This document shows positions 181 to 61,914 of a DNA stretch of 63,414 nucleotides, one piece after another (the stretch's first letter is position 1; every line of letters begins with the position of its first letter). The notes below the pieces were generated by a model, which saw only the letters and a program-made list of their open reading frames with translations, did not search any database and was not told the origin of the DNA. The translations under genes were made by a program, and so were the position numbers. This DNA is from a virus (taxonomy: Duplodnaviria; Caudoviricetes), in IMG/VR virus record IMGVR_UViG_3300045996_000494, positions 1 through 63,414 of that record. One strand, written 5' to 3'.

Positions 181-364
181 TGACGTACGTGATCCTGATC
201 TATGTCGCCATGCTGGCTAACCAGCCAATCGCGGTGCCCGGCGGTGTGTGGAGGGGCATCGACGGAGCCGAGCAATGCCGGATCGAGGCGCGCATTCGCA
301 ACACACGAGAGCGGGGTTGGCACTGCATTGAGATAGCAGAATGACCTAACCCTAGGGGGTAACC

Positions 365-706
365 ATGCTGAAAGTGATTAACGGCGTCGCTCGCAAGAGT
401 GCCGAGTTCGAGAAGCGCCGTGTGTCGTTCGTGTGCATCGCGCCGCAAAGCGTGCAGATCATAAGCGGACAGATGATGGTGAAGCGCCGGGAAACGCCCG
501 GCGCAATGCCGCCCGAGTTCTACGGGCCGATCATGGCTGCGTGGGAGAACGTCCGCACCGCGTACCCGGAGGCAACCGCCGATCTCAAGGTGATAGGTGC
601 CTTGATCGCTGTGCCCGAAGGTTCGTTCCGTGGTCACATCGACTGGGTGAGAGACAGCGCCCCGAAGGTGATCGAGCATCAACCCAGTAACGAAGATGGA
701 GCCTAA
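365..706 (+). CDS. Hypothetical protein
   Basis: 113 aa ORF with a 16-bp motif just before its start and another overlapping its stop. Confidence 0.75.
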   Translation: MLKVINGVARKSAEFEKRRVSFVCIAPQSVQIISGQMMVKRRETPGAMPPEFYGPIMAAWENVRTAYPEATADLKVIGALIAVPEGSFRGHIDWVRDSAPKVIEHQPSNEDGA

Positions 707-721
707 CCCCAGGAGGTAAAC

Positions 722-1138
722 GTGACGCAAAACACCTCACCCCAGGTGAACTTCGAGAAGATGATCGGTGCTTATATCACGCTGCGGGACTGGCTCGACG
801 CCAAGAAGAAAGCGTACGAGGAAGAGATCGAGCCACGCAAGCAGCAGCTCGAAGCGCTGAACGAGTTGTTGTTGAAGAAGCTCAACGTCACTGGTCAAAA
901 CACTGCGCGTACCGAAGCCGGCACTGCCTATAAGAAGGTCTGGCACTCGGCTACCGTCGCCGACAAGGATGCCTTCATGCGTCACGTGATCGGCACGCAG
1001 GACTGGGACTTGATCGACTGGCGGGCGAACAAGACCGCCGTCGTGGACTGCGTGAAGGAAAACCAAGAACCCCCGCCGGGCATCAACTACTCGTCGGGCT
1101 ATGATGTGGGCGTGCGTCGCCCCGGAAAGGACGACTGA
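722..1138 (+). CDS. Conserved phage replication-region protein (coiled-coil N-terminus)
   Basis: AGGAGG RBS inside the motif, GTG start, coupled to the next ORF; typical position before SSB-like genes. Confidence 0.8.
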   Translation: MTQNTSPQVNFEKMIGAYITLRDWLDAKKKAYEEEIEPRKQQLEALNELLLKKLNVTGQNTARTEAGTAYKKVWHSATVADKDAFMRHVIGTQDWDLIDWRANKTAVVDCVKENQEPPPGINYSSGYDVGVRRPGKDD

Positions 1139-2421
1139 TGACACCGACTACCTCTCAACAGGCACTCGCAGTGCTGGCTCAGCAGCGGCTGGGTCAGCTC
1201 CCCGCCGTGTTCCGAGATCGTCTCGGGCAGGGCAAGCTCAACGAGGACATGGCGTCTGGCATCACTGCCGGCTTCGCCATCCTGTCGTTCCGCGGCAAGG
1301 CGTGGCGCGTCAAGCACCGCGGCGAAGAGCGCGTCATGCTCAAGCCCGACAACTCGCCAGTCTACAAAATCGAGGTGGTGATCGTTCGCACCTCCCCGAA
1401 CCTCTCGAAGGTGTGGTACGAGCACGGTTACGTGGAGGGCTCGACAGCGCCGCCGGATTGCTGGTCGGTCGACGGCAAGAAGCCGGACCCTGCCTCGCCC
1501 AAGCTGCAGAACCCCACCTGCGCCGGCTGCAAGTGGAACGCTTGGGGCTCCTCGCGCTCGCAAGCGGGAAGCGGCAAGGGTAAGGACTGTGCCGACAGCA
1601 AGCGCCTCGCCATTGTGCCGCTGCAGGACATCGACAACGAAATCCACGGCGGGCCAATGATGCTGCGCGTGCCGCCGGCCTCGCTTGCGGACTTGCTCGG
1701 CTATGCCAACTCGCTGGAGCAGATCGGCTACCCCTACTACGCGGTTGGGACGGCAATCAGCTTCGACGTGAACGCGGAGTACCCGAAGCTCATCTTCGAG
1801 CCGCTCCGTGCGCTCACCGAGGAGGAAGCGGAGAAGGTCGCTAAGCTGCAGGGAAGCGACATCGTGGATCGCATCATCTCGGCGGCGGTCGAGGCGGTGA
1901 CGACTGACGGCACGGACACCACCCACATTCAGCCCGTGCCGGCTGGGGCCACAGTTCCGCTAGTGTTGCCCCCAGATAAGCCGAAACCAGAACCGGCAGC
2001 GGCGCAGCCTACCCCGCAGGGTAACGATATGCGGGCGCAGATGCGGGCCATGGGGCTCAGCGAGCAGCAGATCATCGCGGCGCTCGGACCGGAGCCCAAG
2101 CCTGAACCACCGGCCGATCCGCGGATTGCACAGCTCAAGGCAATGGGGTTCGACGATGCGAAGATCGCGCAAATCCTTGGCGCACCGGCCGAGCCAGTTC
2201 CTGCGCCCGCTCCCGCGCCGGCCCCGGCCCCAACTCCGCAGCCCCGAACCAGACAAGGACGCAAGCCCAAAGAGGCCGCTAACGGGGCTCAGGAGCCTCC
2301 TGCAGCGCCTCCGGCGCCGGCTACCCCTGTGACGCCCGCCCCTGCGCCGCAGGCCGCTGGCGAGCTTCCGGCTGGCTTTGACGACCTACTTGACGGTATC
2401 ATGGCTGAGACGAAGCAATAA
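1138..2421 (+). CDS. Putative ssDNA-binding/recombination protein with Cys cluster and acidic tail
   Basis: PPDCWSVDG..CAGC..GKDC pattern, Pro/Ala linker, acidic C-terminus FDDLLDG; sits between helicase and primase. Confidence 0.6.
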   Translation: MTPTTSQQALAVLAQQRLGQLPAVFRDRLGQGKLNEDMASGITAGFAILSFRGKAWRVKHRGEERVMLKPDNSPVYKIEVVIVRTSPNLSKVWYEHGYVEGSTAPPDCWSVDGKKPDPASPKLQNPTCAGCKWNAWGSSRSQAGSGKGKDCADSKRLAIVPLQDIDNEIHGGPMMLRVPPASLADLLGYANSLEQIGYPYYAVGTAISFDVNAEYPKLIFEPLRALTEEEAEKVAKLQGSDIVDRIISAAVEAVTTDGTDTTHIQPVPAGATVPLVLPPDKPKPEPAAAQPTPQGNDMRAQMRAMGLSEQQIIAALGPEPKPEPPADPRIAQLKAMGFDDAKIAQILGAPAEPVPAPAPAPAPAPTPQPRTRQGRKPKEAANGAQEPPAAPPAPATPVTPAPAPQAAGELPAGFDDLLDGIMAETKQ

Positions 2422-2428
2422 CAACGAG

Positions 2429-2450
2429 AGGGCGGGGGTCTCCCCGCCCT
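2429..2450 (+). terminator. GC-rich hairpin, possible weak terminator
   Basis: AGGGCGGGG-gtct-CCCCGCCCT with a poor U-tract. Confidence 0.45.
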
Positions 2451-2471: not shown

Positions 2472-5396
2472 ATGGACAACCTGCGGCTCTTCTTGTCCCG
2501 CATCCTGCCGTGGCCGCTCGACGGTAGCTACGTGAACATTCACTGGACCTTCCAAGGCGCTGGCTTCGACAGGCCGGCGTGGTCCGGCCGCGCGTGCACC
2601 ACCGTGGACGAGTGCGTCCGCACCGTAGAGTGGGTGCAGCGCATGCCCGACACTAGGGACTTCTACGTCTGTGTCTCGACGCAGAGCGCGTGCATTGAGG
2701 AGGTGGCGAAGAAGAGCGGCCGCACCGTGCGCAAGGCGGTGCGCAGCCAGCAGAACGCGACCGGCGTGCGCTCCCTGTTCATCGACGTGGACGTGAAGGG
2801 CGGCAAGCACAAGACCGGCTATGAGGACGGTGCCGAGGCTGGCCGTGCCGTCGTCAAGTTCTGCGTCGACGCCGGCATCCCGCGGCCGACGTTGTTCGTC
2901 TCGACTGGCTCCGGCGGCTTGCACCTCTACTGGACCCTGGAGCGCGCTCTGCCGGTGCCCGAGTGGCAACCCCTTGCGAACGCCCTGGCTGAGGCTACGC
3001 GGCGTTTCGGGCTCCAGGCCGACACGGGAGTGACCGTGGACGCGGCGCGCGTCATGCGCCTCCCTGAGACCAAACACAGCCACACCGGCAAGCTGGCGAC
3101 CATGTCCGTGCCGCACATGCTGCAGCACGACTACACCGTCGACCAGATGCGCAGCGCGCTCGCTCCGTACATGGGCGCGCAAGTCATCCCTCTCACCCCC
3201 CGAGGTAACAACGCGCCAACCGGAGCTAACGCTGATCTCGCCGGAGGCATCGAAACGCCAAAGGCCCCACCTGTAGCTGCACGCTCGATGGCTGACGCAG
3301 GATGCGGCTTCGTACGACGTGCGCTTGATACCGGCGGCGCCGACTATGCCAACCCCCTTTGGAACCTTACGACACTCGTTGCCACCTTTACCGAAGGTGG
3401 ACGGGCTGACGCTCACGCGATGGCTAAGGGGCACCCCACCTATGTCCCGCAAGAAACGGACGACCTCTACGACCGCAAGCTCAGGGAGCGGGACGAGAAA
3501 AACCTCGGCTGGCCCTCCTGTCAGTCGGTGGAGAATGCGGGCTGCGTTGAATGCCGGACTTGCCCTCTCAAAGGCCCAGGTACACGACCCCTACAGTTCG
3601 GACGACCTACCCCGGCCGTTCCCCTGGCACCCATGGCCGGTGCCGGAGCAGGAGGATCAGGACAGGGACTAGAGCTGCCGCCGCGTTACGTCCGCAGCCC
3701 GAGCGGCTTGGTCCAGCACATTGTCATCAACCCTAAGACGGGAGCGAGCAGCCTAGTCGATGTCGTCGGGTGTCCGATTGAGAACGGGTGGATGCAGGAC
3801 AACCCGTGGACGATCCACTTCACCGCTACGGTCGGGCACCGCAAGACGCAAGTTAGCGTCACCACGGCGCAGGCCAATTCGAGCGAGGGCTTCGCGAAAG
3901 AGATGGGCCACTACGGCATCCCGCTCAACGGCGACACCTCGAAGCTATTCAGGGAGTTCATCGTGGCTTGGCAGACCAAACTCCAACAGATCAAGGATGC
4001 GGTTGTGTCATCGGCACCGTTCGGTTGGTCAGAACCGGCGGGTGAAATCAACGGCTTCGCCTACGGTGGACGCGTGTGGCAGAAGAACGGAGACAAGCCA
4101 GCGTCCAACCCCGACCCCGAGGTGATCAAGCAGTTTACCCCCCAGGGTGACCTAGAGGTTTGGCGCGAGGCGGCGAGGATGATCACCGACTTACGGACGC
4201 CAGAGCGTGATGCGTTCCTAGCCGCGTCGTTCGGCGCCCCGCTGGTCCGGCTGATCGGACTGCGCGGCCTCCTGATCGCAGCTTTCTCCACAGACAGCGG
4301 CGCGTTCAAGTCCACGTCAATGGCAGTGGCGCAGGCGATATGGGGCAACCCGCAGACCGCGATGCAGCAGCTCGACGACACGCAGAATGGCGTGTTCAAG
4401 AAGCTCGGACAGCTGCAGGCGCTACCTATGCTGTGGGACGAGCTGCAGTCCAACGAGGACACACAGAAGTTCGTCAATCTGACCTTCCGCATGAGCGGCG
4501 GCAAAGAGAAAACGCGCATGTCGTCGGACACATCGTTGAGACAGTCCGGCCTGTGGCAGACCCTCTTGATGTCAGCGTCGAACGTGTCAGTGCTCGACTA
4601 CATCGCCCGCGCCAACAAGACTACGACCGCCGGCATCTACCGTGTGTTCGAGTACGAGATGCAGCCGATCCCCTCTACGAAGAGCATGGTCGCTGCCCAG
4701 CAGCAGGTAGCCAAACTCAATAGTCACTTCGGTCAAGCTGGACTGGTCTACGCAAAGTTCTTAGGCTCGAACTACGACACCATCGAGAAGGATGTCACCG
4801 CCCTCTTCGACAAGCTGGAGAACAAGCTCAACATCCGCAAGGAAGAACGGTTCTGGGTGGGCAGCATCGTGGCTCTCTATTGGGGTGCGGTCTATGCCAA
4901 CCGGTTGGAGCTAACCGATATAGACTTGCCGGCCCTGCTTAAGTTCTTGATCGCTACACTACAACGCATGCGCGGCGAAGTATCGCAGAAGCCTGTCAAC
5001 ATGACCGGTACCTCCGCTATCGGCAGCGTGGTGATGCAGTTTCTACGTGAGCGGCAGACCAAACACATGCTCCGCACCAACAAGATGCACACCCAGCGGG
5101 GTAAGCCGCCAGCCAACTCGATCAAGGTGACAGGCGACACGTCGAAGCTCGACGGCATCCAGATACACTTCGCCGACGAGAGCAAGCTCATGCGGGTAGC
5201 GTCGTCGCCGTTCCGCGACTGGGCGCACGAGAACAGCTACAGCCCGCACACGTTGATTGGCGCGCTGAAGCGCGAGTTCGGCGTGAAGGAAATCCAGGGG
5301 CGGCTAGGCGGCGGGACGCCTTACGTCAGCATGGTGGAGTACGTGTTGGAGTTCGACCTGAACAACCCAGCGCTGGCTGCCATACTGGAGTACTGA
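2472..5396 (+). CDS. Primase (AEP/RepB-like) fused to a DUF927-type helicase-like domain
   Basis: LFIDVD and STGSGGLHLYW primase motifs, RVMRLPET, Cys cluster CVECRTC, P-loop-like SGAFKST and LWDE. Confidence 0.85.
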   Translation: MDNLRLFLSRILPWPLDGSYVNIHWTFQGAGFDRPAWSGRACTTVDECVRTVEWVQRMPDTRDFYVCVSTQSACIEEVAKKSGRTVRKAVRSQQNATGVRSLFIDVDVKGGKHKTGYEDGAEAGRAVVKFCVDAGIPRPTLFVSTGSGGLHLYWTLERALPVPEWQPLANALAEATRRFGLQADTGVTVDAARVMRLPETKHSHTGKLATMSVPHMLQHDYTVDQMRSALAPYMGAQVIPLTPRGNNAPTGANADLAGGIETPKAPPVAARSMADAGCGFVRRALDTGGADYANPLWNLTTLVATFTEGGRADAHAMAKGHPTYVPQETDDLYDRKLRERDEKNLGWPSCQSVENAGCVECRTCPLKGPGTRPLQFGRPTPAVPLAPMAGAGAGGSGQGLELPPRYVRSPSGLVQHIVINPKTGASSLVDVVGCPIENGWMQDNPWTIHFTATVGHRKTQVSVTTAQANSSEGFAKEMGHYGIPLNGDTSKLFREFIVAWQTKLQQIKDAVVSSAPFGWSEPAGEINGFAYGGRVWQKNGDKPASNPDPEVIKQFTPQGDLEVWREAARMITDLRTPERDAFLAASFGAPLVRLIGLRGLLIAAFSTDSGAFKSTSMAVAQAIWGNPQTAMQQLDDTQNGVFKKLGQLQALPMLWDELQSNEDTQKFVNLTFRMSGGKEKTRMSSDTSLRQSGLWQTLLMSASNVSVLDYIARANKTTTAGIYRVFEYEMQPIPSTKSMVAAQQQVAKLNSHFGQAGLVYAKFLGSNYDTIEKDVTALFDKLENKLNIRKEERFWVGSIVALYWGAVYANRLELTDIDLPALLKFLIATLQRMRGEVSQKPVNMTGTSAIGSVVMQFLRERQTKHMLRTNKMHTQRGKPPANSIKVTGDTSKLDGIQIHFADESKLMRVASSPFRDWAHENSYSPHTLIGALKREFGVKEIQGRLGGGTPYVSMVEYVLEFDLNNPALAAILEY

Positions 5397-5855: not shown

Positions 5856-5963
5856 AATGCTAAGCTACTTACCCTGTGGGGGTAAGTCGTGTGGCCGAAG
5901 ATCAGGATGTCGCGCTCTACCTGCAGCTCGTGCGCGACATCATCGAGTCAGAGAAGCAGACCC

Positions 5964-7272: not shown

Positions 7273-7286
7273 GTTACCCCACGAGG

Positions 7287-7430
7287 TTACTTTTTCTTTT
7301 TGCCCTTGCGCTTGTCGGCCTCGTGGAACTCCTTCGCCACCGACCGGTCCATGCCGACCTTCTTGGCGAAGGATGGAGAGTTAGCCGCGGCGGCCATGAA
7401 CTTCTTCTGCTTCTTAGACTTGCTTGGCAT
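7287..7430 (-). CDS. Small basic conserved phage protein
   Basis: MPSKSKKQKKFMAAAANSPSFAKKVGMDRSVAKEF...; below the ORF-track cutoff; its stop is the TAA of the motif. Confidence 0.7.
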   Translation of the reverse strand: MPSKSKKQKKFMAAAANSPSFAKKVGMDRSVAKEFHEADKRKGKKKK

Positions 7431-7781: not shown

Positions 7782-10700
7782 TCAGTCTCCCTGCAGCGCC
7801 GCGCGCCGCTTCTCTTTGTCCGCACGGATAGCGTCGAGCGCCTTGGTGCCGATCTTCTGGCGGGTGCGCTTCACCTCGTCTGCCTGCTTGTTGTGGATCA
7901 CAATGCGTGCCCTAATTTTCAACAGCTCGCTCGATGACCCAGCTTCGAGGTACTGTCGCTGCAGTCGCTTACGCTCCTCTTCGAGCTTCTTGCCGATGGC
8001 GATATTCGCGCCTGTCTTTTCGCCCTCCTCAGCCATCCGAGCCGAGCGGGCACCGGCTGCCTGAATGAACGCCTCGGACGTTGTGATGTCCCGGTTTACC
8101 CTCTGGGTAACTGCCTTCGCCGTGTCAGCCACGAACTTCGCCGGCACAGCCTTGATGAAGGCTTTGCCCAGATCGCCGTCTGCCGCGTGCTGTCCGGCGT
8201 CGGCCCAGTCCAGCATGAGCGAGGCAGGGGCGCCACCAAGAAGGCGAAACATGTACGCCTCGGCGCCCTCACGGTCCCCAGACTTGGGCTCGCCGAACAG
8301 CCACATGTCGGACATCGACACGCGCGACGACAGGTCGGGGAACGGGATGAACTGCGCGATCCCGCGGGCGAGAATGCCCTTGTTGATCAGCTCCTCCGGG
8401 GTCTTGCCGACCGTCTCCGCGAACCACTTGCGCCACTTGCGCTCTTGATCATCCCAGCCATCGCTGAGCCCGAGCATGGATGCTATCACGAAGCCGGTCT
8501 TTAGCAGCTCCAGCCCAGGCAGCCCCATGGCGCCAGCCATCGCCATCTGCACGGTCAGTAGCGCGCCGATCTGCCCCCAGGCGATGCGCTTCTCATGCGG
8601 CGTGCCAAACCCCGCCTTGCGCACCATGTCGACTAGCAGCGCCGTGACGTTCTGTGCGAACTTCTTGAACTGCAGCGCGGGCGCTGCAAGCGGATGGCTG
8701 AAGAACCGCGGCTGGTTGAACGCAGCGTAGTTGAACTGCGAGCGGTCAATAATGTCCTTGGCATGCGCGATAGCTTGCTCCTCGGTCATCCCCGAGCTTC
8801 GGCCAAGGCGGTAGGCGGCCACGGCGCTGACAGAGCGGTTGATGTCCTCGACGGCGATCATCATCTGGCGCGCGATGCGCTCGGCCTTCGCAATGGCCAT
8901 GCGCGTCTTGCCGGCGCCGGCAGAGATCGATGCCGCCAGCTCAAAGCCAGCCTCCGAGCCCAGCTGCCCCGTCGCCTGCAACTCGTTGATCAATTCGGTC
9001 AGCGCCACCCCATCCGGCTCCGCCGCTACGCGCTTGCGGATCGAGCCGATCAGGTCCGACGTGTCGAGCCCGAACTTGTTGAAGTGGCGGATCGCCTCCC
9101 CAGTGTTCGCCAGCCCACCGCCCAGCACGGTGTGCGCGCCAACAGCGCGGTAAGCCCGGTTCACCGCCGCCATGCTCCGCAGCGCCCCGTAGTGGCCTGT
9201 GAGCACCGGCACTGTGAACATGTTCGGCTGCAAGCTATTGACCGCCAAGTACATCGGCGAAAACAGCTTATCCATGAATGACAGCGTCAGCGCGAGCCTC
9301 ACCCACGGATGCTGCTCACGTGGGTTGATCACGTTCCGGTCGATGCGCGCTACCAGTTCGTTGAGCACTTGGTTGCGCGCCTGCATGAACTTGCTCTCGG
9401 GCTGGTCAGCGATCAGCCGGCGCATATCCTCAAGCGCGTCCCGCACCGTCGGCATGTAGCGCAGCTTGCCGAGATAGTTCGATGCCGCCGTGGCGTACTG
9501 CACAGTGTTGCGCGCGATGTCCTGCGAAGCCCCAGCCACGTTGCGGCGTGGTAGCGACCGCTGCTGGATGCGGTTGCCCGCCATGAGCCGCACCGACGCT
9601 TCTTTGGCGGCGTTCTTCAGCACCTGCTTGAAGCCAGCGTCGATGTCCGTCCGCTTGTCGATCACCGAGATGATCGACGCGAGCTGCGTATTGGTGAGAT
9701 CGCCGCCCTGCTCTGCTTCCTGACGGTCGAGCGCCTTACTGTCGGTCCACTCGAACTCGCCGCGGTTCTCCTCGATCCACCGCGCCGCCTCGCGCCCCGT
9801 GTCGAACATCTGCAGCCCGCGGCGCTGCACGCGAGCGCGGTAAGCCACCTCGTGCTTCTGACCCTTGGCGTCCTCGGCCGACACGATGGTGCCGTCCGGC
9901 AGATAGCGGCGCTTACCCACTGAGGTAATCTTGGCGCCGGTGCTCTCGGCAAACGCCTTGTATTGCACGCGTGCCGCCGCGTCCTTCGGCGCCCGCCACT
10001 CGATGATGACGTTGCCATGCTTGTCAGTCTCTACGATCTGGCCGCCGTGAAGATCACCGAGCCTCGCCCGCGTCCGCACCACCTTCTTGCCGTGGCGCAT
10101 GAGCGGGACGTAGATGCCCTTGACTACCCGCAGCTCGCCGGAGTCACGCAGAGCGTTGAACAGCGTCGGGTTGTCGAGGATGCCGGCGTCGTCCTCAGTC
10201 AGCGTGCCGTTCAACGTGTTGTTGAAAAGCTGTGCGTAAGCCTGTGGAGAAATGTCGCCCGGCGCGAGCGAACGCAGGATGTTGCCGACCAGCGCCTTGG
10301 TCATCTCGTTCTGCATGTCGCGGTAGTAAGTGGCGCTGTCGAGGATGTATTTCTGCACGTCGGTGGGCAGCGCCGCGAACTGCTGCTCCAGCCGTGCTAG
10401 CTGCGCCTTGTTCTGGTAGTTGCGCGCCACGTCCTTGCCGAGATGCGAGTTGTCGGCGTTCGGCCCCAGGTTGACGTTCGCCATGGTGGCGTCGATCCAC
10501 ACGCCGGCGGCGCGGCCCATCACATCGCGGCCGTGCTGCTCGATCAGCTGCAGCCAGCCCTGCGCGATGGCCTCGCCATCCTTGCGCTTGTTGTCGACGT
10601 AAACCGCCTGCTTGCTCAGCGCCTCGTAGATGCGGTCGAGCGGGTTGCCTTCGCCGCGCGCGCCCTCGAACGCCGGCCGCATGGTCCGCACGATCTGGTC

Positions 10701-22472: not shown

Positions 22473-22553
22473 ATCGTAGACCCTTTCTGATGCGGTTACC
22501 CCGTGAGGTAATGCAGTTGTAGCACTTCAGGTCGGGCGCCGCAAACCTGCTGG

Positions 22554-25473: not shown

Positions 25474-25494
25474 GGTTACCCTCCGAGGTTACTC

Positions 25495-37640: not shown

Positions 37641-37677
37641 TGGTCAGTCCCTTTGCAGTTACCCCGCGGGGTAAAGG

Positions 37678-51472: not shown

Positions 51473-52581
51473 CCCTAAACCTACTCCAGTGGCACATAGC
51501 CTACCACGCCACCGATGATCAGCTCACCCGTTTAATGGTGTACTGGCCATGAACTACGACCCGGTGCCCGCATGGTTCCAGTGGAAAGCAGCAGAGTATG
51601 CACTCCGAGCAGCACTGCGGAAGTTGGTGCACGCAAGACTAAAGGTTGAGCCATGACGACGTTCTCGTTCCGCGCCTTCAACTTCGACGCATGGCGTGAC
51701 CGGGCAAAGCTTTTCCACGATGGGTGGCGTGTAGCTAACTACGCTATGGACAGCGAGATCGCGCAACTGGAGATCGCTCACGATGCCTGCAAAAATAGGG
51801 AAGCGCTGGCGCACATGGCTCGCCAAGCGCTCGATACCGCCTGGAAAAATCGCCCGCCCCGGCATGCGCAAAGACAAGGTCGCCGTCAAGGCAGCTAAGG
51901 TCTCCGCACAGGAGCGCGAGCAGCTCGCCATCATCAAGCGCCGGCGCGAAGAGATCGCCCGTGAGAACGCACGCCTCGCCCGCCAGGAGGCACGTCTGGC
52001 TTCCCGCCAGCGCCGTGCCGACGAGGAGGCGCAGTGGCACTACGAGCGTCAGATGGAGGACTACGTCCTCGGTCGCACTAACCCCGAGAGGTAATGGCCA
52101 TGGCCTACCGCTGGCACATCTATAAGATGATCACCCGTGAGCGTGCTGAGATTGTTGCCCGCGAACTGGCGCTGGCGGTCGAGATACCGCGCGACGGCGA
52201 CTGCCTCGCTGAGGTTGGGCGGGAAGGGCTCCCCTGCCGGCTGTGTGCTCGCAACCGCATGGAATGGCGGGCGGCAGTCGGTCGTGTACGCCTCGCGCTG
52301 AAGAAGGCTTTCAGCTAACCCCGAGAGGTAAATGTCATGCTCATGTTCATGGAGACAGAGGGCACCGTGCTGCTTGTGCAGAATGGTGTGTATAACGAGG
52401 TGAAGGTCTGCCGTTATCTGGATCGCCTATACGGCAAGATTGGTAAAGACCGGTATGTTGAGCTGCACCGGGACCACTATACCAGCAATCCCAAGACGAT
52501 GTGGAAACTTATTGCTGGCATCCACTATGAAGTGGACAACAAGTCAGGTGCTATCATCTTGGCGTAGGAATATATAGCCTC

Positions 52582-52628: not shown

Positions 52629-52820
52629 ATGGACTACCGTGAGCGCCTGCACGACGAACAGCTTGAGCTTCAGGCGCAGCGCATCACCCGCGATGTTCTT
52701 GCGACACTCCGCGAGAACGGTGACAACCTCGACATTCTCGCCGCCGTGCGGCGGGCCTTGCTCGACCATAACCCCGGAAAGGTAACTCATGGACACCGAG
52801 AAGATACTGATCAAGCGTGA
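52629..52820 (+). CDS. Hypothetical protein
   Basis: First ORF after the promoter, strong RBS. Confidence 0.65.
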   Translation: MDYRERLHDEQLELQAQRITRDVLATLRENGDNLDILAAVRRALLDHNPGKVTHGHREDTDQA

Positions 52821-53203: not shown

Positions 53204-53569
53204 ATGCTCACCGAGCACCAGTACGCACGCATCTACAGGCGCGTGCGTGCTGCGACGATGATCGATCCGCGGGCGCTCGCTGAGTACGACGGCGCGCGCA
53301 ACATCGTCTACATCAACGTGGACATCTTCGACGAGCTGCCCACACACGAACGGTCCCGCGTGTTCTACGACTCGTACTGGGACGCTGCCAGCTAACCCCG
53401 AGAGGTAACAATGGAACTCACACTCACCCAGGCAGAGCTGGAGGTGCTTAGGAAGCTCGTGCCGCACCTTGAGCTGATCCCCGGAGGTGGGGACATCGGC
53501 GAGGACTACAACCTCACCGAGGACGACGACAACGCGCTGTGGAGCTTCATCAAGAAGCTGCAGGCGTAA
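53204..53569 (+). CDS. Two small hypothetical ORFs (53204-53395 and 53411-53569)
   Basis: RBSs present; joined by the motif at 53393. Confidence 0.65.
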
Positions 53570-53604
53570 CTCACCCCCACTACCCCTTACCCCGAGAGGT
53601 TACC

Positions 53605-54681
53605 ATGAAACTAAAAGATATCGAGCGCCGCCTTGTGACGTGGTTCAAGAGCGGCAAGTGCGTGTACCTGCGCGGACCCATCGGTCGTGGCAAGACCACG
53701 GTCATCCAGTCCGCTCCCGCCCGCCTCAAGGAAGCGCTTGGCGGCAGCTACGGCATCGTGATCGTCTCCGGTCCGCTGCTCAACCCGCCGGACGCTGTGG
53801 GCTACCTCATGCCGGAGAAGCGTGGTGAGTGGCTCATGTCGCTGTTTACCCAGCCCTTCTGGTTCATCACCGACGAAGGCAAGCACATCTCTGAGTACAC
53901 CGGCGGCATCATCCTTGTGGACGAGGCCGACAAGATGGACACCGACGTGAAGAAGGTGATCGGTGAGGCAGCCTTGTCCGGTCGCCTCGGCCCACACCGC
54001 CTTGCTGACCACGGTGACTGGCACGTGTGGATGGCGGGCAACCGTGCGGGTGATCGTTCGGGCGCCACCAAAGAGTTTGATCACCTGATCAACCGCCGCA
54101 TGGAGATCAACGTCGACGACGATCTTGAGTCGACGGAGGATTACTACATGAAGGCGGGTGTGCGGCCGGAGTTCATCGCCTTCGCGCACTCCAACCCGCA
54201 AATCGTGTTCATGGACCCGCCGCCGGTGCCGGGACCGTGGTGCACACCTCGCTCACTGCACTCGCTGGCTGACTACGCCATGCAGCACGTAGATGGCGAG
54301 GGCCTGCTGCCGACCGACCCACTGTTCAAAGAGGAAGCCGCCGGCTTCATCGGCGAGGGGCCGACCGCGCAGCTGTTCGCTACCCTGGAGCTGGCGCGTG
54401 AAATGCCACGCTTCGAGGAGATCGTTGCTAACCCCAGCAAGGTAAAGCTGCCGACCAAGGCGGATGCCCAGATGCTCGTGGTCTACACGCTCGCTGCGAA
54501 GGTGGACGACAAGACGTTGGGGCCGTGCATCAAGTACATCGAGCGCATGCCGGCGGAGTTCACCATCACTTTCGGCAAGAGCGTGGTGACCCGCAAGAAG
54601 GCGTTCGTGGTGCACCCCGAGTTCGCTGCATGGTGCCAGCGTAACAGCGCGCTCCTGATGGCCATCACCCAGATCGGGTGA
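53605..54681 (+). CDS. MoxR-like AAA+ ATPase
   Basis: Walker A GPIGRGKT, Walker B ILVDE, AGNR..D, NR and TPRS motifs. Confidence 0.88.
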   Translation: MKLKDIERRLVTWFKSGKCVYLRGPIGRGKTTVIQSAPARLKEALGGSYGIVIVSGPLLNPPDAVGYLMPEKRGEWLMSLFTQPFWFITDEGKHISEYTGGIILVDEADKMDTDVKKVIGEAALSGRLGPHRLADHGDWHVWMAGNRAGDRSGATKEFDHLINRRMEINVDDDLESTEDYYMKAGVRPEFIAFAHSNPQIVFMDPPPVPGPWCTPRSLHSLADYAMQHVDGEGLLPTDPLFKEEAAGFIGEGPTAQLFATLELAREMPRFEEIVANPSKVKLPTKADAQMLVVYTLAAKVDDKTLGPCIKYIERMPAEFTITFGKSVVTRKKAFVVHPEFAAWCQRNSALLMAITQIG

Positions 54682-55049: not shown

Positions 55050-55136
55050 CGTACGACGTGCTCAGGTGGCATGCTTCCCGCCCCGTGAGCACATCTGAGC
55101 CACCCGAATAGCTCCTCTCACCCCGGAGGGTAACAC

Positions 55137-56450
55137 ATGGAAATCCTGAAGAAGCCCCGTGAGATACATGCGACCGAGGTGTCGCTGACCGGCCAGCAGA
55201 CAAAGCTGTGGGATCAGTCCCGCGCCAAGTTCATGCTGTCGTGCCCGGCGTTCTGCCACATCCTCTACCAGATGATGAACCCGCGGCGGCAGGAGAAGCA
55301 TGCGGTGTTCACGCATGACGTGCCCATCGCCGGCACCGACGGGCTCTACATGTATCTGAACCCGGAGCGATGGTTCAAGTACACGCTCGGCGAGCGGTGC
55401 TTCATCATGGCTCACGAGGTGCTGCACGCCATCTTCAATCACTGCATCATCTTCCACATGTACCGCACCCGCGAACATGTGAAGTTCTCGGACGGCACGC
55501 AGCTGCCGTACGTCGAGATCGTGATGCAGCTCGCTGCCGACTGCGTGATCAACGCCATCATCCGCGACAGCGCCTTCGACGGCTTCGCCGTGCCGGCCGA
55601 CGCTCAGTTTCAGGATGACATCACGTCTGAGGACCAGCTGATCGAGGCGTACCGCAAGGTATTCAAACAGACCAAGGGCGGCAAGAAGTTACCCGGTGAT
55701 GGTAAGCCGGGCGAGGGTGGGCCGAGCAACGGCTTCGATGTGCACCTTGAGCCGGGCTCCACCGAGGGCAAGCCCGGCACGGTCGCTGCGCAGGACCGCA
55801 ACGAGCAGGAGTGGAAGATCGCGGTGTCTGCCGCCATCGCCCTGGCGAAGGCACAGGGCAACCTCCCTGGCACCCTGGCGCGCGTTCTGGAAGACGTGCT
55901 CGACCCGCAGGTGTCGTGGCAGGACTACGTCGAGGGCTGGTGCAAGCGCAAGGCGGGTGGTGGCAGCTTCAACTTCCGCCGGCCAGACCGCAGGCTGATC
56001 TCCCGAGAAGTGCCGATCTATGCCCCGGCGCGCAGCGGGTTTGGCGTGAACAACATGGTCGTGGTCGTGGACACGTCAGGCTCGATCACTGACCCGACCA
56101 TCAGCATGTTCTTCGCCGAGATGAAAGGTGTGCTGGAGGACGTGAAGCCGGAGCATATGTTCGTGATCTGGTGCGATGCGAAGGTGCACCGCATCGACTA
56201 CATCGAGGACATGAGCGACTTGCTCGCCCTGCGCAGGAAGGATGCGCCGGGCGGCGGTGGCACTAGCTTCGTCCCACCGTTCGACACGGTGCGCGACGAT
56301 CTCGGGATCACGCCCGACGCGCTGATCTACCTCACCGATGGCGACGGCACATTCCCCGCGGCGGCGCCGAGCTACCCCGTGTTGTGGGGCACGATCAAGA
56401 AGAACAATTACCCCTGGGGTGAAGTCGTCGAGATACCGCAGGTGCAGTGA
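55137..56450 (+). CDS. Metallopeptidase-vWA protein (DUF2201-like)
   Basis: AGTDG, AHEVLH (HExxH), MIDAS DTSGS, GGGGTSF and LTDG. Confidence 0.88.
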   Translation: MEILKKPREIHATEVSLTGQQTKLWDQSRAKFMLSCPAFCHILYQMMNPRRQEKHAVFTHDVPIAGTDGLYMYLNPERWFKYTLGERCFIMAHEVLHAIFNHCIIFHMYRTREHVKFSDGTQLPYVEIVMQLAADCVINAIIRDSAFDGFAVPADAQFQDDITSEDQLIEAYRKVFKQTKGGKKLPGDGKPGEGGPSNGFDVHLEPGSTEGKPGTVAAQDRNEQEWKIAVSAAIALAKAQGNLPGTLARVLEDVLDPQVSWQDYVEGWCKRKAGGGSFNFRRPDRRLISREVPIYAPARSGFGVNNMVVVVDTSGSITDPTISMFFAEMKGVLEDVKPEHMFVIWCDAKVHRIDYIEDMSDLLALRRKDAPGGGGTSFVPPFDTVRDDLGITPDALIYLTDGDGTFPAAAPSYPVLWGTIKKNNYPWGEVVEIPQVQ

Positions 56451-56980: not shown

Positions 56981-57009
56981 ACCACTCTAACCCCGAGAGG
57001 TAACTGATC

Positions 57010-57756: not shown

Positions 57757-57785
57757 TACCCCATCCACCCCAGGAGGTAACCGCT

Positions 57786-58307: not shown

Positions 58308-60245
58308 ATGAGCTACGTCGTTCTCGATTTTGAGACCTACTACGACAAAGAGTACTCCCTGCGAAAAATGACGCCAGTGGAGTACCTGCTTGACACGCGC
58401 TTCGAGGTGATCGGCTGCGCGGTGATCGACCGCGAGGGGCTGCAGGCTAGACTCTTGGACGGCAAGCCGGTGTTCGTCGAGCCCGAGCCGCTGCGCGATT
58501 ACCTCGCAGGGTTACGGCAGCGCCAGCTACAGGGCGAGGTGCTCACCGTAATATCACACAATGCTCTGTTCGACATGTGCATCCTCGCCTGGAAGTATGG
58601 CGTGGTGCCGGACCTGATCATCGACACGCTCTCAATGGCGCGGGCAACGGTCTATGCCTACACCGGGAGCGCGGCGCTAGATGTCGTGGCTGACTACTTC
58701 TCTCTGCCTCCCAAGGGCACGGCGATCAAACACGTCTCGGGCATGAACGCGCAAGCGATCAAGGATGCCGGGCTGTGGGACACGTACACAGCCTACGCAG
58801 AACATGACGCTTGGCTGTGCGAGCAGATTTACCAGATGCTAATGAATGATTGGGACTTCCCCGAGGAAGAGCTGGAGATTTACGATCTCGTCATCAAGTG
58901 CGCCGTGGTGCCCAAGTTCCAGCTCGACGCCGATCTCCTGGCGCAGCACGCCGCCCAGCTGGAAGCACACAAGCAGGCGCTGCTGGCGCGCTGCGGAATG
59001 ACCGACCGCCTCGCGCTGATGTCGAACGAGAAGTTCGCGGCGGCGCTCGGTGCCATTGGGCTCAACATCGAGATACCGATGAAGCTATCGCCGACGACGG
59101 GTGAGTTGACCTACGCCTTCGCCAAGTCCGACCCCGCCATGATCGAGCTGTCCGAGCACGAGGATGTGCGGGTGCAGGCGCTGGTCGCTGCACGCATCGG
59201 CCACAAGTCGACCATCGAGCAGACGCGCACCGAGAAGCTGCTGCGCATCGCCCAGCTGGAGTGGCCGAACGGTAGCCGCGGTTGGTGCCCCATCCCGCTC
59301 CGCAACGCCGGAGCCCACACGCACCGTCTATCGGGCGACTGGAAGCTCAACGCTCAGAACTGGCCGCGCTTCACCACGTATGAGGGGCAGGAGAAACAGA
59401 CCGGATTGCTGCGCCGTGCACACAAGGCGCCACCCGGCAAGAGCGTGGTGAAGCGTGACGCCAGCCAGATCGAGGCGCGCATCGTCGCGTGGTTGCCGCG
59501 CCAGTTGGACTTAGTGCAGGCATTCCGCGAGGGCCGTGACATTTACTCCGAGTTCGCGGAGCAGGCGATCTACCACTACCCTGTCAACAAGACGACGGTG
59601 GACGAGCGCTTCGTCGGCAAGACCGCGATCCTGGGGCTGGGCTTTGGTGTCGGCCCCGACAAGTTCGCCAGCGAGGTGGCGGCCAAGAGCTATGCCAACC
59701 TCGGGCACAAGATCGACATGCCGGTTACCCAGGCAGGTAACATCGTCAATGCCTACCGCACCATGTACCCGATGATCCCTTTGGCCTGGAAAACGCTGCA
59801 GAACTATATCCCAGTTATGGCACGCGATCTGAATTTTGCGATGGCCTTTGGGCCAGTAATACTGGAACACCAATCAATATTCCTGCCCAACGGTCAACGG
59901 CTCTACTACCACAATCTGGAGTATGACACGCAGAAGCAGGAGTGGATGTTCAAGTACGGCCGCATGCCGAAGAAGATTTACGGCGGCAAGATGTTCGAGA
60001 ACATAGTGCAGGCGCTGGCGCGGATCATCACCATGTCCGCCACACTCAAGATGAAGAAGCTATTTCCAAAGATCGGGCTGGCGCATCAGGTGCACGACGA
60101 CCTAGTCTACATCGTCCCGAATGACATGGTGATCGAGTTCGATCACGCGCTCGCCCAGTGCATGAACGAGCCGCCGCTGTGGGCCGCAGAGCTGCCGCTC
60201 GCCAGCGAGGGCGGCATCGGTCCGAACTACGGAGATGCGAAATGA
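58308..60245 (+). CDS. DNA polymerase family A with 3'-5' exonuclease
   Basis: LDFETY, HNALFD, motif A DASQIEAR, motif B RFVGKTAILGLGFG, motif C VHDD. Confidence 0.93.
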   Translation: MSYVVLDFETYYDKEYSLRKMTPVEYLLDTRFEVIGCAVIDREGLQARLLDGKPVFVEPEPLRDYLAGLRQRQLQGEVLTVISHNALFDMCILAWKYGVVPDLIIDTLSMARATVYAYTGSAALDVVADYFSLPPKGTAIKHVSGMNAQAIKDAGLWDTYTAYAEHDAWLCEQIYQMLMNDWDFPEEELEIYDLVIKCAVVPKFQLDADLLAQHAAQLEAHKQALLARCGMTDRLALMSNEKFAAALGAIGLNIEIPMKLSPTTGELTYAFAKSDPAMIELSEHEDVRVQALVAARIGHKSTIEQTRTEKLLRIAQLEWPNGSRGWCPIPLRNAGAHTHRLSGDWKLNAQNWPRFTTYEGQEKQTGLLRRAHKAPPGKSVVKRDASQIEARIVAWLPRQLDLVQAFREGRDIYSEFAEQAIYHYPVNKTTVDERFVGKTAILGLGFGVGPDKFASEVAAKSYANLGHKIDMPVTQAGNIVNAYRTMYPMIPLAWKTLQNYIPVMARDLNFAMAFGPVILEHQSIFLPNGQRLYYHNLEYDTQKQEWMFKYGRMPKKIYGGKMFENIVQALARIITMSATLKMKKLFPKIGLAHQVHDDLVYIVPNDMVIEFDHALAQCMNEPPLWAAELPLASEGGIGPNYGDAK

Positions 60246-60326
60246 TCTGGTGGCGGCTGTGTGTCCCGTGGCCAGACGAGGATGGTTGGTTCGCGTTTGG
60301 GCTTCCCCTAACCCCGGAGGGTAACG

Positions 60327-60581
60327 ATGGCTGACGATCCGTTGAAAGAGTGGATGGACAAGAACGTGTCGACAGGTGGCCCGGTCGAGTTGCCGCCCGC
60401 ACCTAAGTCGGTGTGCGGCAACTGCCGCTTTGGTCTGCCGACCGCGCAGCTGAACCAGCTCGGGTGTGCGCGCTTCCCGCCACAGATCGTGCTGCTGCCA
60501 CCGAACCAGCTGCTCACTCAATTCCCCATGGTGCAGCCTACGCAATACTGTGGAGAGCACCAGCCGAAGTTGAATAGCTGA
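60327..60581 (+). CDS. Small Cys-rich protein
   Basis: CGNCRF...CARFPP...YCGEH; follows the motif at 60309. Confidence 0.7.
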   Translation: MADDPLKEWMDKNVSTGGPVELPPAPKSVCGNCRFGLPTAQLNQLGCARFPPQIVLLPPNQLLTQFPMVQPTQYCGEHQPKLNS

Positions 60582-60772
60582 TGAAACATCTGTTGCAGCT
60601 AACAGCGAACTGCTGCAAGTGGGTGGAAGGCGATCCACGCTCGCTTATGTACTGCGGCGAGCCGGTGCAGCCGGGCACTAGCTGGTGCCCGAGGCATCAC
60701 AAGATCGTCTTTCCCGGCAAGCCGCCGCCAGCCCCGGCGCAGCCACCCCGCAAGCCAGGATGGTTCCGATGA
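60581..60772 (+). CDS. gcrA: GcrA-like protein, C-terminal domain only
   Basis: LLQLTANCCKWVEGDP...YCGEP...SWCPRH matches the GcrA CTD pattern. Confidence 0.72.
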   Translation: MKHLLQLTANCCKWVEGDPRSLMYCGEPVQPGTSWCPRHHKIVFPGKPPPAPAQPPRKPGWFR

Positions 60773-61500
60773 ACGTGCACACTACCCGCTTCGCCCCCGC
60801 CAAGCAGAAGCCCTTCGCGTGGTCGTACACGAAGCTGAAAAACTTCGAGGCGTGTCCGAAGCGACACTACCACGTCGACGTGATCAAGGATGTGAAGGAA
60901 GAGGAAAGTGAGCAGCTCCGATACGGCAACATCATCCACACCATCCTCGACCAGTACGTCCGGCACGGCACCACTCTGCCACCCGTGCACGAGCCCCACC
61001 TCAAGCCCTGGGTCGACCGCGTCTTTACCTTCCGAGGTAAGGACGTGCGACAGCACGGCGCCATCGTCAACGCCGAGCAGCAGCTGGCGATCAACAAGGA
61101 CTTTGCCCCGACCGAGTGGTTCGGCCGTGAGGCGTGGTACCGCGCCAAGGTAGACGTGATGTGGCGCCTCGGCCCCGTCGCCGGCGTCGTTGATTGGAAA
61201 ACCGGGAAGGTGGTTGAGGACAGTGTGCAGCTCATGCTGACCGCAGCCTGCGCCTTCGCCCATTACCCCGAGGTGCAGATAATCCGCTCCACGTTCGCGT
61301 GGCTCGCGGAGGGTGCTACGACCGACTGCGACATGCGCCGCGAAGAGCTGCCGGAGATGTGGTCGAGCCTATGGGACCGCATCGAGCTACTGAGGCACGC
61401 CTATGAAACAGTCTCGTACCCGCCAACCCCGTGCCGGCTCTGCCGAGCGTGGTGCCCCGTCAAGCAATGTCCGCACCATGGAGAAGCGCACGGTGGATAA
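60769..61500 (+). CDS. Cas4-like PD-(D/E)xK exonuclease
   Basis: WSYT..F..CPK, G..IH, VD...DWKTGK and C-terminal LC..WCPV..C. Confidence 0.85.
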   Translation: MNVHTTRFAPAKQKPFAWSYTKLKNFEACPKRHYHVDVIKDVKEEESEQLRYGNIIHTILDQYVRHGTTLPPVHEPHLKPWVDRVFTFRGKDVRQHGAIVNAEQQLAINKDFAPTEWFGREAWYRAKVDVMWRLGPVAGVVDWKTGKVVEDSVQLMLTAACAFAHYPEVQIIRSTFAWLAEGATTDCDMRREELPEMWSSLWDRIELLRHAYETVSYPPTPCRLCRAWCPVKQCPHHGEAHGG

Positions 61501-61584
61501 ATGGGTGAGACATTGGGTAGAACAGATTATGGATGAACAAATATACTGGGTTTGGGATAAAGGCCGGAATAAAAGGACTTGACA

Positions 61585-61914
61585 ATGGCCACCCCGGAAG
61601 GTAAAATCAAAACCAAGATCAAGAAACTACTCAAGACTTACGAGGACCAGGGTATCTACTACGAGATGCCAGTGCCCTCGGGCTATGGCAAGTCAGGTCT
61701 CGACTTCTATGGTTGCTTCCGTGGGTACTTCTTTGCCATCGAGGCGAAGGCCCTAAAAGGAATGGTAACTCCACTACAAGACTTTACCATAAATAATATA
61801 CGTGCAAGCGGAGGAGCGGTGTTTGTAATTAGGGACGATCATGGTCTGAAAGAACTAGACGTATGGTTGGTAATGGTTAGTGCAATGAACCGACAACTGG
61901 TACAAGTGCTATGA
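61585..61914 (+). CDS. VRR-NUC domain nuclease
   Basis: TPEGKIK...G..D...FAIEAKA...TPLQ...I..SGG. Confidence 0.85.
   Translation: MATPEGKIKTKIKKLLKTYEDQGIYYEMPVPSGYGKSGLDFYGCFRGYFFAIEAKALKGMVTPLQDFTINNIRASGGAVFVIRDDHGLKELDVWLVMVSAMNRQLVQVL

Follow-up and report, generated by a model that had tools for sequence, protein, structure and literature searches.

The window analysed here is a complete virus record (IMGVR_UViG_3300045996_000494; Duplodnaviria, Caudoviricetes) of 63,414 bp, with terminal repeats and a G+C content of approximately 62%, and the element under study is a 16-bp palindrome, TTACCY-N4-RGGTAA, that recurs throughout it. We tentatively read these copies, with somewhat less than even confidence, as a genome-wide array of putative dimer-binding sites on duplex DNA, which would mark the phage DNA during lytic growth. 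The window sequence is contained in five records, all of them soil-metagenome DNA contigs, and a megablast search for near-identical phage records found none. As laid out by a self-trained map of open reading frames (ORFs) together with family searches, the genes form two blocks. The rightward early and replication block begins at approximately 45.9 kb, passes through the end of the record and continues to 5.8 kb, and comprises many small ORFs, an ATPase, a von Willebrand factor A (VWA)/metallopeptidase protein, a DNA polymerase, PD-(D/E)XK and VRR-NUC nucleases, an SNF2 helicase, and a DUF927 primase-helicase. The leftward block, from approximately 44.5 kb down to 6 kb, encodes a cell-wall hydrolase and a polyvalent virion protein of 2151 aa besides the portal, capsid and tail proteins, while the two genes for the terminase occupy 40.1-42.1 kb of the + strand. 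Searches of the window for Rfam families and tRNAs gave zero matches.

A palindrome dispersed along the genome

A sequence-only reading had proposed an operator-like palindrome repeated across the whole genome, and the array proves to be real. The pattern of that reading, TNACCYNNNNRGGTAA, is found at 37 places, 16 of them on both strands, for a total of 53 strand matches, where 100 dinucleotide shuffles predict 0.02 places with a maximum of 1. When all 16-mers within two mismatches of TTACCYNNNNRGGTAA are collected, 56 are found, of which 16 are perfect, 25 differ at one position, and 15 at two; first-order Markov simulations (n = 30) give 0, 0.1, and 1.27 per genome, respectively, or approximately 1.4 in total. 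Permitting one arm mismatch and spacers of 5 to 7 bp yields 51 non-overlapping sites. The inverted arrangement TTACC-Nk-GGTAA is enriched only at k = 6 (16 copies), k = 5 (2 copies), and k = 7 (2 copies), with everted and direct arrangements and all other spacers near zero, and half-sites in isolation are not enriched beyond those that lie within sites. A Chi-like or uptake-sequence reading is rejected, since half-sites on their own are not in excess and the motif is missing from host DNA. The coordinates listed from the letters alone were largely recovered, with 48 of 49 falling among the 56 16-mers (the exception, 49654, carries three mismatches), and all eight variants described as off by one in spacing prove to have N5 or N7 spacers and no more than one mismatch in the arms. 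Three copies counted as perfect were absent from that list, at 9913, 58499, and, in the N7 form, 55689; 58499 is entered with one mismatch in Table 1. The centre of the palindrome, described there as four free nucleotides, is free only in part: positions 6/11 are Y/R and positions 7/10 lean the same way, while all changes at position 5/12 are transitions. Four sequencing runs covering 44001-63414 carry essentially the same strain, with 32 variant places, none of them in a site where approximately 0.45 would be expected, a comparison that has no power.

Within coding sequences (CDSs), the copies are maintained at the level of nucleotides. In 200 synonymous-codon shuffles of 81 CDSs, perfect copies lying at least 30 nt inside a gene average 0.31 with a maximum of 3, and the genome contains 12; copies with one mismatch, taken alone, are not significant (7 as against 3.15, maximum 7). 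The codons of the motif spell 10 of the 15 hexapeptides of the form [FLIV]T..G[KN] in the proteome, where codon usage predicts 0.19, and the frequency of compatible hexapeptides is itself raised by approximately 9-fold, a rough estimate from 15 occurrences. Nearly all deep in-CDS sites adopt the frame xTT ACC YNN NNR GGT AAx, which is symmetric about the dyad. With perfect copies far above the shuffles and motif codons far above expectation at these hexapeptides, selection targets nucleotides rather than peptides. The enrichment over codon-preserving controls that the sequence-only reading had anticipated is thus present, and its claim that the motif is more than a ribosome-binding site is borne out by this DNA-level selection inside genes.

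The sites are also regularly spaced. In the late region, the coefficient of variation of the gaps is 0.40, compared to 0.94 for random placement, and none of 3000 simulations was as low. Six sites within the two largest genes are more even still (coefficient of variation 0.17, P = 0.0003), lying 1.5-1.8 kb apart. Comparable regularity is seen in the early region of the cultured phage RHph_TM27A and in the related genome G001, but not in a third relative, G004.

Conservation across a phage family, turnover, and host DNA

Relatives were gathered with the capsid protein, which retrieved 246 sequences in IMG/VR; the 80 best of these were retained. The nearest relatives in culture are four Rhizobium phages (RHph_TM27A, RHph_TM27B, TM29, and TM3_14A), whose capsid and primase are 67% and 38% identical to those of the window. 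Nine complete or near-complete genomes carry 25-98 sites each with at most one mismatch, where an N9 control pattern gives 0-4. Counts across 76 non-redundant sequences (four genomes and 72 loci) are 205 for TTAC-N8-GTAA, 74 for TTAC-N7-GTAA, and 4-13 for each of seven other spacers; a few short loci have zero sites. RHph_TM27A, which infects Rhizobium phaseoli and has 56% G+C, contains 26 perfect N6 and 8 perfect N5 copies, of which 20 extend to GTTACC...GGTAAC, and six sites lie in its 2307-aa gene alone. The balance of spacers differs between members, with perfect N5 and N6 forms about equal in G019 (20 and 22). An IMG/VR contig of 63.6 kb (L210) is the most N5-biased member, having 11 N5 copies and one N6 copy within 9.9 kb. 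The family spans different hosts and 54-62% G+C, and the motif persists throughout. In a collection-wide scan with an 18-mer, among the 80 loci listed, homologues of window proteins are present at 20 of 30 multi-site loci as compared to 3 of 50 single-site loci, and the arrays are thus essentially a property of this phage family.

Two other repeats in these loci were considered as arrays of a different palindrome. The first, TCCAGG-N4-CCTGGA in L005, has three copies, two of them adjacent, and is unconvincing. The second, GTGACGCGGCGCGTCAC in L080, has four identical copies at 824-2395, and since all of them lie within 1.6 kb, it is a local cluster rather than an array; these copies may constitute a local operator or origin cluster. 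The TTACC motif is absent from the stretch of L080 that was covered.

The motif is conserved, whereas its positions turn over. When 64 in-CDS sites were placed on ten orthologue alignments from four genomes, only 12 fell in the same column as a site of another genome, none of them being common to three, and many in-CDS sites fall at gaps or at residues that differ in relatives. Between the window and a close relative, L091, the arms of the site at 46195 are kept at 10 of 10 positions within a match that is otherwise 68% identical, and several matches between the two stop at or beside sites. It is this last observation that bears on a role as recombination linkers, that is, short identical boundary sequences that would let related phages swap early-gene cassettes. 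Homologues of the early genes at 45.9-53.6 kb are almost absent from eight relatives, yet the motif stands at nearly every junction, and in Cluster O mycobacteriophages indels have been explained by recombination between repeats (PMC4351075). Such a role would leave the in-frame copies in conserved genes, the even spacing, and the dyad symmetry all unexplained, and we regard it as very unlikely to be the purpose of the array; recombination at the sites is more likely a consequence of them than their reason.

Host DNA was compared in two settings. The relative G004 is a 60.5-kb phage contig within the assembly of a Bradyrhizobium isolate, and of the six perfect sites in that 8.7-Mb assembly five lie on the phage contig, leaving one elsewhere as against four for the control pattern. 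A metagenome-assembled genome (MAG) of Xanthobacteraceae holds an integrated relative with host-gene flanks and a tyrosine integrase, the prophage occupying approximately 48.5-108.4 kb; in a 100-kb stretch of this contig, all 26 sites lie between 51.5 and 109.2 kb, the host flanks being siteless except for a one-mismatch match at 109,190, just past the integrase. In a Pseudolabrys MAG (G021:C4, a 465-kb contig carrying loci L123 and L124), a phage genome is present twice in tandem, three perfect sites recurring at an offset of 61,893 bp, a pattern that points to a tandem prophage or else to an artefact of assembly.

A host factor had been put forward as one candidate binder. A factor with a regulon of its own in the host is made unlikely by the Bradyrhizobium assembly, with its single perfect site off the phage contig. 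The related notion of an enzyme target, whether for a restriction-modification-like system or another DNA-modifying enzyme of bipartite specificity, takes its appeal from the 5-N6-5 and 5-N5-5 architecture with one-base spacer variants, which resembles Type I and Type IIB recognition sequences, and from the two nucleases that the phage encodes. Phages normally avoid the targets of such enzymes, but here the sites are enriched and evenly spaced. Pfam scans of 50 window proteins revealed neither a methyltransferase nor a specificity subunit, no search aimed at methyltransferases having been made. For either version, host-factor site or modification target, host genomes are not enriched and the motif persists across hosts and base compositions, so that we consider this the least probable of the explanations weighed here.

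Silencing of a stoperator type, one of the roles suggested for a protein coating the genome, also fits poorly. An integrase is present in G004, G015, and G016, and was not found in the window, G001, G017, G018, G019, or RHph_TM27A. The three integrase-bearing relatives have the three lowest site counts among the nine genomes (uncorrected for kinship), which argues against a lysogenic silencer.

Gene junctions, hairpins, and a putative DNA-binding dimer

The placement of the sites differs between the two halves of the genome. A start codon (ATG or GTG) that begins a frame of 40 codons or more stands 0-8 nt downstream of 23 of the 56 sites, compared to 15.6% of random positions, and these start-associated copies make up 17 of 30 in the early region but 6 of 26 in the late region. 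At such junctions, GGAGG or GAGAGG is spelled by the centre together with the 3′ arm, while the stop codon of the upstream ORF is, at many of them, either the 5′ TAA of an arm reading TAACC or the 3′ TAA. Early-region copies thus appear, from their letters, to serve doubly as stop codon and Shine-Dalgarno sequence. The start-associated copies are asymmetric on the coding strand, with TAACC on the 5′ side, and in RHph_TM27A many sites likewise stand 2-6 nt before annotated starts. The other sites fall well inside genes or in intergenic DNA of other kinds, among them the one at 5869, where the two blocks converge. These features could be accounted for by a translational cassette of stop codon, Shine-Dalgarno sequence and start, a 'start-associated sequence' possibly read by a regulator, of which the in-CDS copies would be by-products. 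That account meets its difficulty in the deep in-CDS copies, which are the most perfect palindromes, show selection at synonymous sites as well as sense-strand symmetry, and recur at even intervals in genes without internal starts. It also does not cover the copies in the convergent intergenic region or the weak association with starts in the late region, and pairing to the 3′ end of 16S rRNA leaves the outer TTA/TAA and the flanking G/C unexplained. As the sole explanation of the array, we therefore judge translation to be distinctly unlikely.

Whether the palindrome acts as duplex DNA or as a folded single strand can be approached from its variation. From 1.1 Mb of sequence from relatives we compiled 236 sites deep in CDSs, retaining near-duplicate loci, and the resulting position matrix is symmetric on the sense strand. 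At positions 6/11 of the 158 deep in-CDS N6 sites, Watson-Crick combinations number 61 as compared to 61.8 expected, with C..A (39) as frequent as C..G (38), and the flanking G...C preference likewise lacks covariation. Sites with a mismatch in one arm are common (25 in the window, 32 in G001, and 16 in RHph_TM27A), whereas compensated symmetric variants number 1, 0, and 1, respectively, which is background. Predicted RNA hairpins of the 16-mers range from -1.1 to -7.8 kcal/mol, with start-associated copies mostly at -1.6 to -2.7, and the DNA hairpins of perfect sites average -2.6 kcal/mol, energies mostly weaker than -5 kcal/mol. Between 42 and 61.9 kb there are 18 terminator-like hairpins, and no site overlaps any of them. 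This pattern of variation favours two independently read half-sites on duplex DNA. Because the half-sites vary independently, without covariation, and the hairpins are weak, a duplex-binding dimer is preferred over an RNA or single-stranded DNA structure, in keeping with the dimeric DNA-binding protein predicted from the fixed spacing and symmetry.

The competing possibility is a small hairpin in single-stranded nucleic acid, in which a protein would read the 5-bp stem TTACC/GGTAA plus the first and last bases of the loop. It could form in the lagging-strand DNA template, where it would serve priming or loading of the primase-helicase once per Okazaki-fragment length, or in mRNA as a processing or protein-binding stem-loop. 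The strictly inverted repeat with loops of 5, 6, and 7 nt side by side in one genome would suit it, as would the identity of the hairpin on both strands, the exclusively transitional changes at position 5/12, and a spacing in the giant genes close to the length of bacterial Okazaki fragments. It is countered by the missing covariation at variable positions, by one-arm mismatches that break the stem and are as common as perfect sites, by compensated doubles at background in the three site-rich genomes, by marginal stability (many RNA forms at -1.1 to -2.9 kcal/mol), by the terminator comparison, and by the lack of an Rfam family match. On balance, we consider the hairpin unlikely.

The reading of the array as dimer-binding sites on duplex DNA would then work as follows. 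A symmetric dimer, most probably encoded by the phage, would recognize the sites sequence-specifically in double-stranded DNA, where each subunit reads one half-site, (G)TTACCY, and the half-sites face one another across 3-4 (rarely 5) free base pairs. Selection would maintain at least one site per 1-2 kb throughout the genome. In long genes, the site would be encoded in the reading frame, mostly as xTT ACC YNN NNR GGT AAx, wherever the protein tolerates it, while in the gene-dense early region it would be accommodated at junctions by reusing its letters, with TAA as the upstream stop and RGGT as the next Shine-Dalgarno sequence. In essence, the array would set phage DNA apart from host DNA and act in the lytic cycle, not in lysogenic repression. 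We infer the protein binding itself, the dimeric state, the phage origin of the protein, and the effect of binding from these patterns.

Several observations weigh against this reading. Over 63 perfect sites with an aligned relative, arm identity (0.743) hardly exceeds flank identity (0.706; P = 0.23). Averaged over many pairs of relatives, the arms were likewise no different from the flanks, an average governed largely by one-mismatch sites that arise by chance in the conserved capsid gene. Retention of the arms is nevertheless bimodal, and at 80-90% flank identity they are fully kept in 58% of 55 comparisons, where 20% is expected. The early-region copies stand so precisely ahead of starts, at 1-7 nt (17 of 30 versus 16% at random), that the signal must be partly translational. 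In the pooled non-redundant set, compensated N6 arm variants number 34 as compared to approximately 11 for control spacers, or about 3-fold, a count that also speaks for the hairpin, while non-compensated mirrored doubles are not enriched (18 versus approximately 22). G004 alone has five compensated variants, and the others are scattered across loci poor in canonical sites, with TTACT...AGTAA recurring in L034, L062, and L067. Such variants could mean that base pairing matters, or that specificity has shifted in some lineages. The coexistence of N5 and N6 forms within one genome (20 and 22 in G019; 8 and 26 perfect in RHph_TM27A) is a further difficulty, since a rigid dimer should not tolerate it and a hairpin loop would. 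Finally, the binder was not found. Pfam scans of the 50 window proteins returned a single DNA-binding domain, the HTH_17 at 43598-43879, six-frame searches of the window gave no match to PF02195 (ParB_N) at E ≤ 1 and found no HTH_3, and a small DNA-binding protein common to all nine genomes was not found.

The helix-turn-helix (HTH) candidates named from the letters did not hold up as readers of the sites. The HTH_17 protein does contain its domain, but its homologues occur in three of eight complete relatives, where the motif occurs in all eight, and neither 57786-58202 nor 51230-51472 matches any family. The proteins common to all nine genomes are structural or act in replication and recombination, apart from two without assigned function. 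Phylogenetic profiling failed to single out a binder because the motif is present in every complete genome and no non-core gene tracks it, which leaves those two shared proteins to be considered. These two core proteins are encoded upstream of the primase-helicase. The first, p138 (722-1138), combines a long N-terminal helix with a small beta domain and gave a weak Gam-like structural match (2p2u_B, Z 5.0, root-mean-square deviation 3.2 over 71 residues), with nothing at E ≤ 0.001 in Foldseek. The second, p427 (1138-2421), has four invariant Cys residues, a long disordered Pro/Ala-rich tail, and a conserved acidic end, and we take it, by analogy, to be a zinc-containing protein similar to single-stranded DNA-binding protein (SSB); its model is poor (predicted local distance difference test, 59.5). 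Profile searches with both against PDB sequences produced nothing meaningful, and Atlas searches returned viral clusters only, without names. Both were set aside, as neither the weak Gam-like match nor the SSB-like reading suggests sequence-specific binding.

A more specific proposal is that the array is a sequence-encoded 'self' label, on which a phage protein would load every 1-2 kb and then occupy, or spread over, the neighbourhood. We regard this as speculative and rather unlikely. It draws on the contrast between approximately one site per kb in the phage and approximately one per 8 Mb in the one host assembly. If true, the label could shield the DNA from the phage's own or host nucleases, or steer replication, recombination, or packaging to phage DNA only, and would be an alternative, free of base modification, to self-marking by hydroxymethylcytosine or deoxyuridine, at the cost of rewritten codons and even amino acids. 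A self-label or organising scaffold would represent a new principle of phage genome biology and a constraint on gene annotation and phage engineering, such as recoding and synthetic genomes.

Table 1. Sites of the palindrome in the window, with the form of each copy (N5, N6, or N7, spacer length; mismatches counted in the arms) and its surroundings (+/-, coding strand).
Coordinates	Form	Context
347..362	N6, 1 mismatch (TAACC)	ATG 2 nt downstream on +
704..719	N6, 1 mismatch	5′ TAA ends ORF 365-706; GTG 2 nt downstream
2009..2024	N6, 1 mismatch	deep in CDS 1138-2421 (+), frame 1
3193..3208	N6, 1 mismatch	primase-helicase CDS 2472-5396, frame 1
4135..4150	N6, 1 mismatch	primase-helicase CDS, frame 1
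5869..5885	N7, perfect arms	convergent intergenic region between + and - gene blocks
7274..7289	N6, 1 mismatch	ATG of gene 6808-7272 (-) 1 nt downstream
8096..8110	N5, perfect arms	giant virion-protein CDS 7782-14237 (-)
9913..9928	perfect	giant CDS 7782-14237, frame 1
11671..11686	perfect	giant CDS 7782-14237, frame 1
13213..13228	perfect	giant CDS 7782-14237, frame 1
14768..14783	N6, 1 mismatch	CDS 14241-16703 (-)
15836..15852	N7, 1 mismatch	CDS 14241-16703 (-)
16537..16552	weaker, 2 mismatches	CDS 14241-16703 (-)
18360..18375	perfect	CDS 18035-18484 (-), frame 1
19045..19060	weaker, 2 mismatches	CDS 18994-20046 (-)
20214..20229	perfect	CDS 20039-21754 (-), frame 1
21379..21395	N7, 1 mismatch	CDS 20039-21754 (-)
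22496..22511	perfect	intergenic, 23 nt upstream of gene 21777-22472 (-)
23587..23602	perfect	3′ end of CDS 23576-24289 (-); ATG of next gene 7 nt downstream
25476..25491	N6, 1 mismatch	ATG of gene 24286-25473 (-) 2 nt downstream
27791..27806	perfect	CDS 25495-27885 (-), frame 1
28869..28884	perfect	between major capsid gene 28925-29896 (-) and next gene
31666..31681	perfect	intergenic, 14 nt upstream of - strand start
32147..32162	N6, 1 mismatch	CDS 32047-33984 (-)
35263..35278	N6, 1 mismatch	CDS 35196-35501 (-)
37659..37674	perfect 16-bp palindrome, TTACCCCGCGGGGTAA	intergenic, 18 nt upstream of - strand start
39990..40006	N7, 1 mismatch	portal CDS 38007-40070 (-), 64 nt in
40568..40583	perfect	3′ end of small-terminase-position CDS 40132-40614 (+); large terminase start 27 nt on
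42473..42488	N6, 1 mismatch	intergenic
44219..44234	perfect	intergenic
46195..46210	perfect	CDS 45966-46475 (+)
47189..47204	weaker, 2 mismatches (TAACC...GGTGA)	5′ TAA is ORF stop; GTG 2 nt downstream
47438..47453	weaker, 2 mismatches	
47848..47863	N6, 1 mismatch (TCACC)	ATG 7 nt downstream
48482..48497	weaker, 2 mismatches	5′ TAA is ORF stop
49258..49273	symmetric variant TAACC...GGTTA	5′ TAA ends ORF 48598-49260
49563..49578	1 mismatch	3′ TAA ends ORF 49357-49578; ATG 3 nt downstream
49880..49895	1 mismatch	3′ TAA ends ORF 49671-49895; GTG 1 nt downstream
50582..50597	1 mismatch	3′ TAA ends ORF 50283-50597
50627..50642	weaker, 2 mismatches	ATG 1 nt downstream (by eye)
50725..50740	1 mismatch	5′ TAA is ORF stop; ATG of 50742-51005 1 nt downstream
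50990..51005	1 mismatch	3′ TAA ends ORF 50742-51005
52079..52094	1 mismatch	3′ TAA ends ORF 51783-52094; ATG 5 nt downstream
52316..52331	1 mismatch	5′ TAA ends ORF 52100-52318; ATG 5 nt downstream
52769..52785	N7, 1 mismatch	just before start of 52789-53169
53393..53408	1 mismatch	5′ TAA ends ORF 53204-53395; ATG 2 nt downstream
53587..53602	1 mismatch	ATG of ATPase gene 53605-54681 2 nt downstream
54429..54445	N7, 1 mismatch	ATPase CDS
55118..55133	1 mismatch (TCACC)	ATG of 55137-56450 3 nt downstream
55689..55705	N7, perfect arms	CDS 55137-56450
56988..57003	1 mismatch	ATG of 57010-57756 6 nt downstream
57765..57780	weaker, 2 mismatches	ATG of 57786-58202 5 nt downstream
58499..58514	1 mismatch	DNA polymerase CDS 58308-60245; alignment column shared with G001 site
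59725..59740	perfect	DNA polymerase CDS, frame 1
60309..60324	1 mismatch	ATG of 60327-60581 2 nt downstream
61025..61040	perfect	PD-(D/E)XK nuclease CDS 60769-61500; alignment column shared with G004 site
61589..61604	weaker, 2 mismatches	in spacer and -10 of sigma-70-like promoter match 61579-61607
62234..62248	N5, perfect arms	SNF2 helicase CDS 61911-63413

Some features surrounding the sites were recorded in passing. The copy after the capsid gene has counterparts directly after that gene in relatives, and by eye it is nested, at 28860-28895, in a longer inverted repeat (ccgggg...cctcgg, with a coding-strand centre of TTCG), so that this site may additionally form an RNA stem-loop. Matches to sigma-70-like promoters are not enriched in 42-61.9 kb (9 as compared to 5.2 ± 2.3), and 61589 is the sole site there that overlaps one; two near-consensus promoters, with 11 of 12 hexamer matches, lie inside the rightward block at 52582-52610 and 61579-61607. 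At the divergence point of the gene blocks, approximately 2 kb (45000-47100) is mostly non-coding, with one small ORF at 45966-46475, a G+C-rich stretch without a good ORF at 45.2-45.96 kb, iteron-like tandem repeats at approximately 46550-46660, and an AT-rich stretch with promoter-like hexamers at 46.7-47.05 kb, which together make it a plausible candidate for an origin and early-promoter region. Nine leftward ORFs of 50-645 aa at 31685-38007 separate the scaffold/capsid module from the portal gene; they have no Pfam match and almost no homologues in the eight complete relatives, and the segment looks like a window-specific insertion within the structural operon. In the Rhizobium phage L081 (MN988461), the gene at 42248-45331 labelled 'putative integrase protein' is a homologue of the DUF927 primase-helicase of the window, and a PF00589 integrase search of that record found none; the label, as carried by Rhizobium phages, is probably wrong.

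Comparison with known systems

Dispersed short sites are known in several settings, and each shares part of what is seen here. The stoperators of L5-type (Cluster A) mycobacteriophages are asymmetric 13-mers, oriented with transcription and bound by the lysogenic repressor. The likeness lies in tens of copies of one short site spread genome-wide, often at junctions near starts and stops, and, for the reader proposed here, in binding by one phage protein. The differences are that the present site is a palindrome, symmetric on the sense strand in its copies deep inside CDSs, and that the window contains neither an integrase nor a repressor-type HTH_3 domain. The start-associated sequences of Cluster K are likewise asymmetric, include the Shine-Dalgarno sequence, and are restricted to gene starts; they resemble the present motif in standing just upstream of many start codons, but approximately half of the present copies are intragenic or distant from any start. 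The ParB-parS, Noc and Noc-binding site, and SlmA and SlmA-binding site systems use 14-16-bp palindromes that are read by dimers in many copies along a replicon, each serving its neighbourhood. The present 16-bp palindrome agrees with these in length and in its many copies, and differs in being phage-borne, in lying inside genes, and in recurring approximately once per kb; ParB_N was not found in the window, and no spreading or CTPase protein was identified.

A description of this motif was not found in the literature, supplements lying outside the scope of that search, and dispersed palindromes are known from a few phage groups. The cultured Rhizobium phages in the family make the reader and the purpose of the array accessible to ordinary bench experiments.

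The closest published analogue is the 17-bp palindrome of Cluster O mycobacteriophages, TGTTCGG-N3-CCGAACA, which is present in 34 copies between and within genes, is absent from host genomes, and has a role that remained unexplained, its authors suggesting a dimeric regulator (PMC4351075). Both systems have short inverted arms around a small variable centre, tens of dispersed copies that are intergenic, near starts and in CDSs, and host genomes without the motif, and recombination between copies was noted there as well. In contrast, the two sequences are unrelated, as are the phages, Cluster O comprising actinobacterial siphoviruses; the arms are invariant there, whereas here one arm mismatch is tolerated, two to three spacer lengths coexist, and copies double as stop codon and Shine-Dalgarno sequence. 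The likeness is one of a descriptive class, not of a homologous family. What the present array adds in quantitative terms is selection at synonymous sites, regular spacing, and conservation with positional turnover in a large and mostly uncultured family of soil phages. The even spacing, the codon-level selection, and the persistence across so deeply diverged a family (capsid approximately 67% and primase approximately 38% identical) were not met in the portion of the Cluster O account seen.

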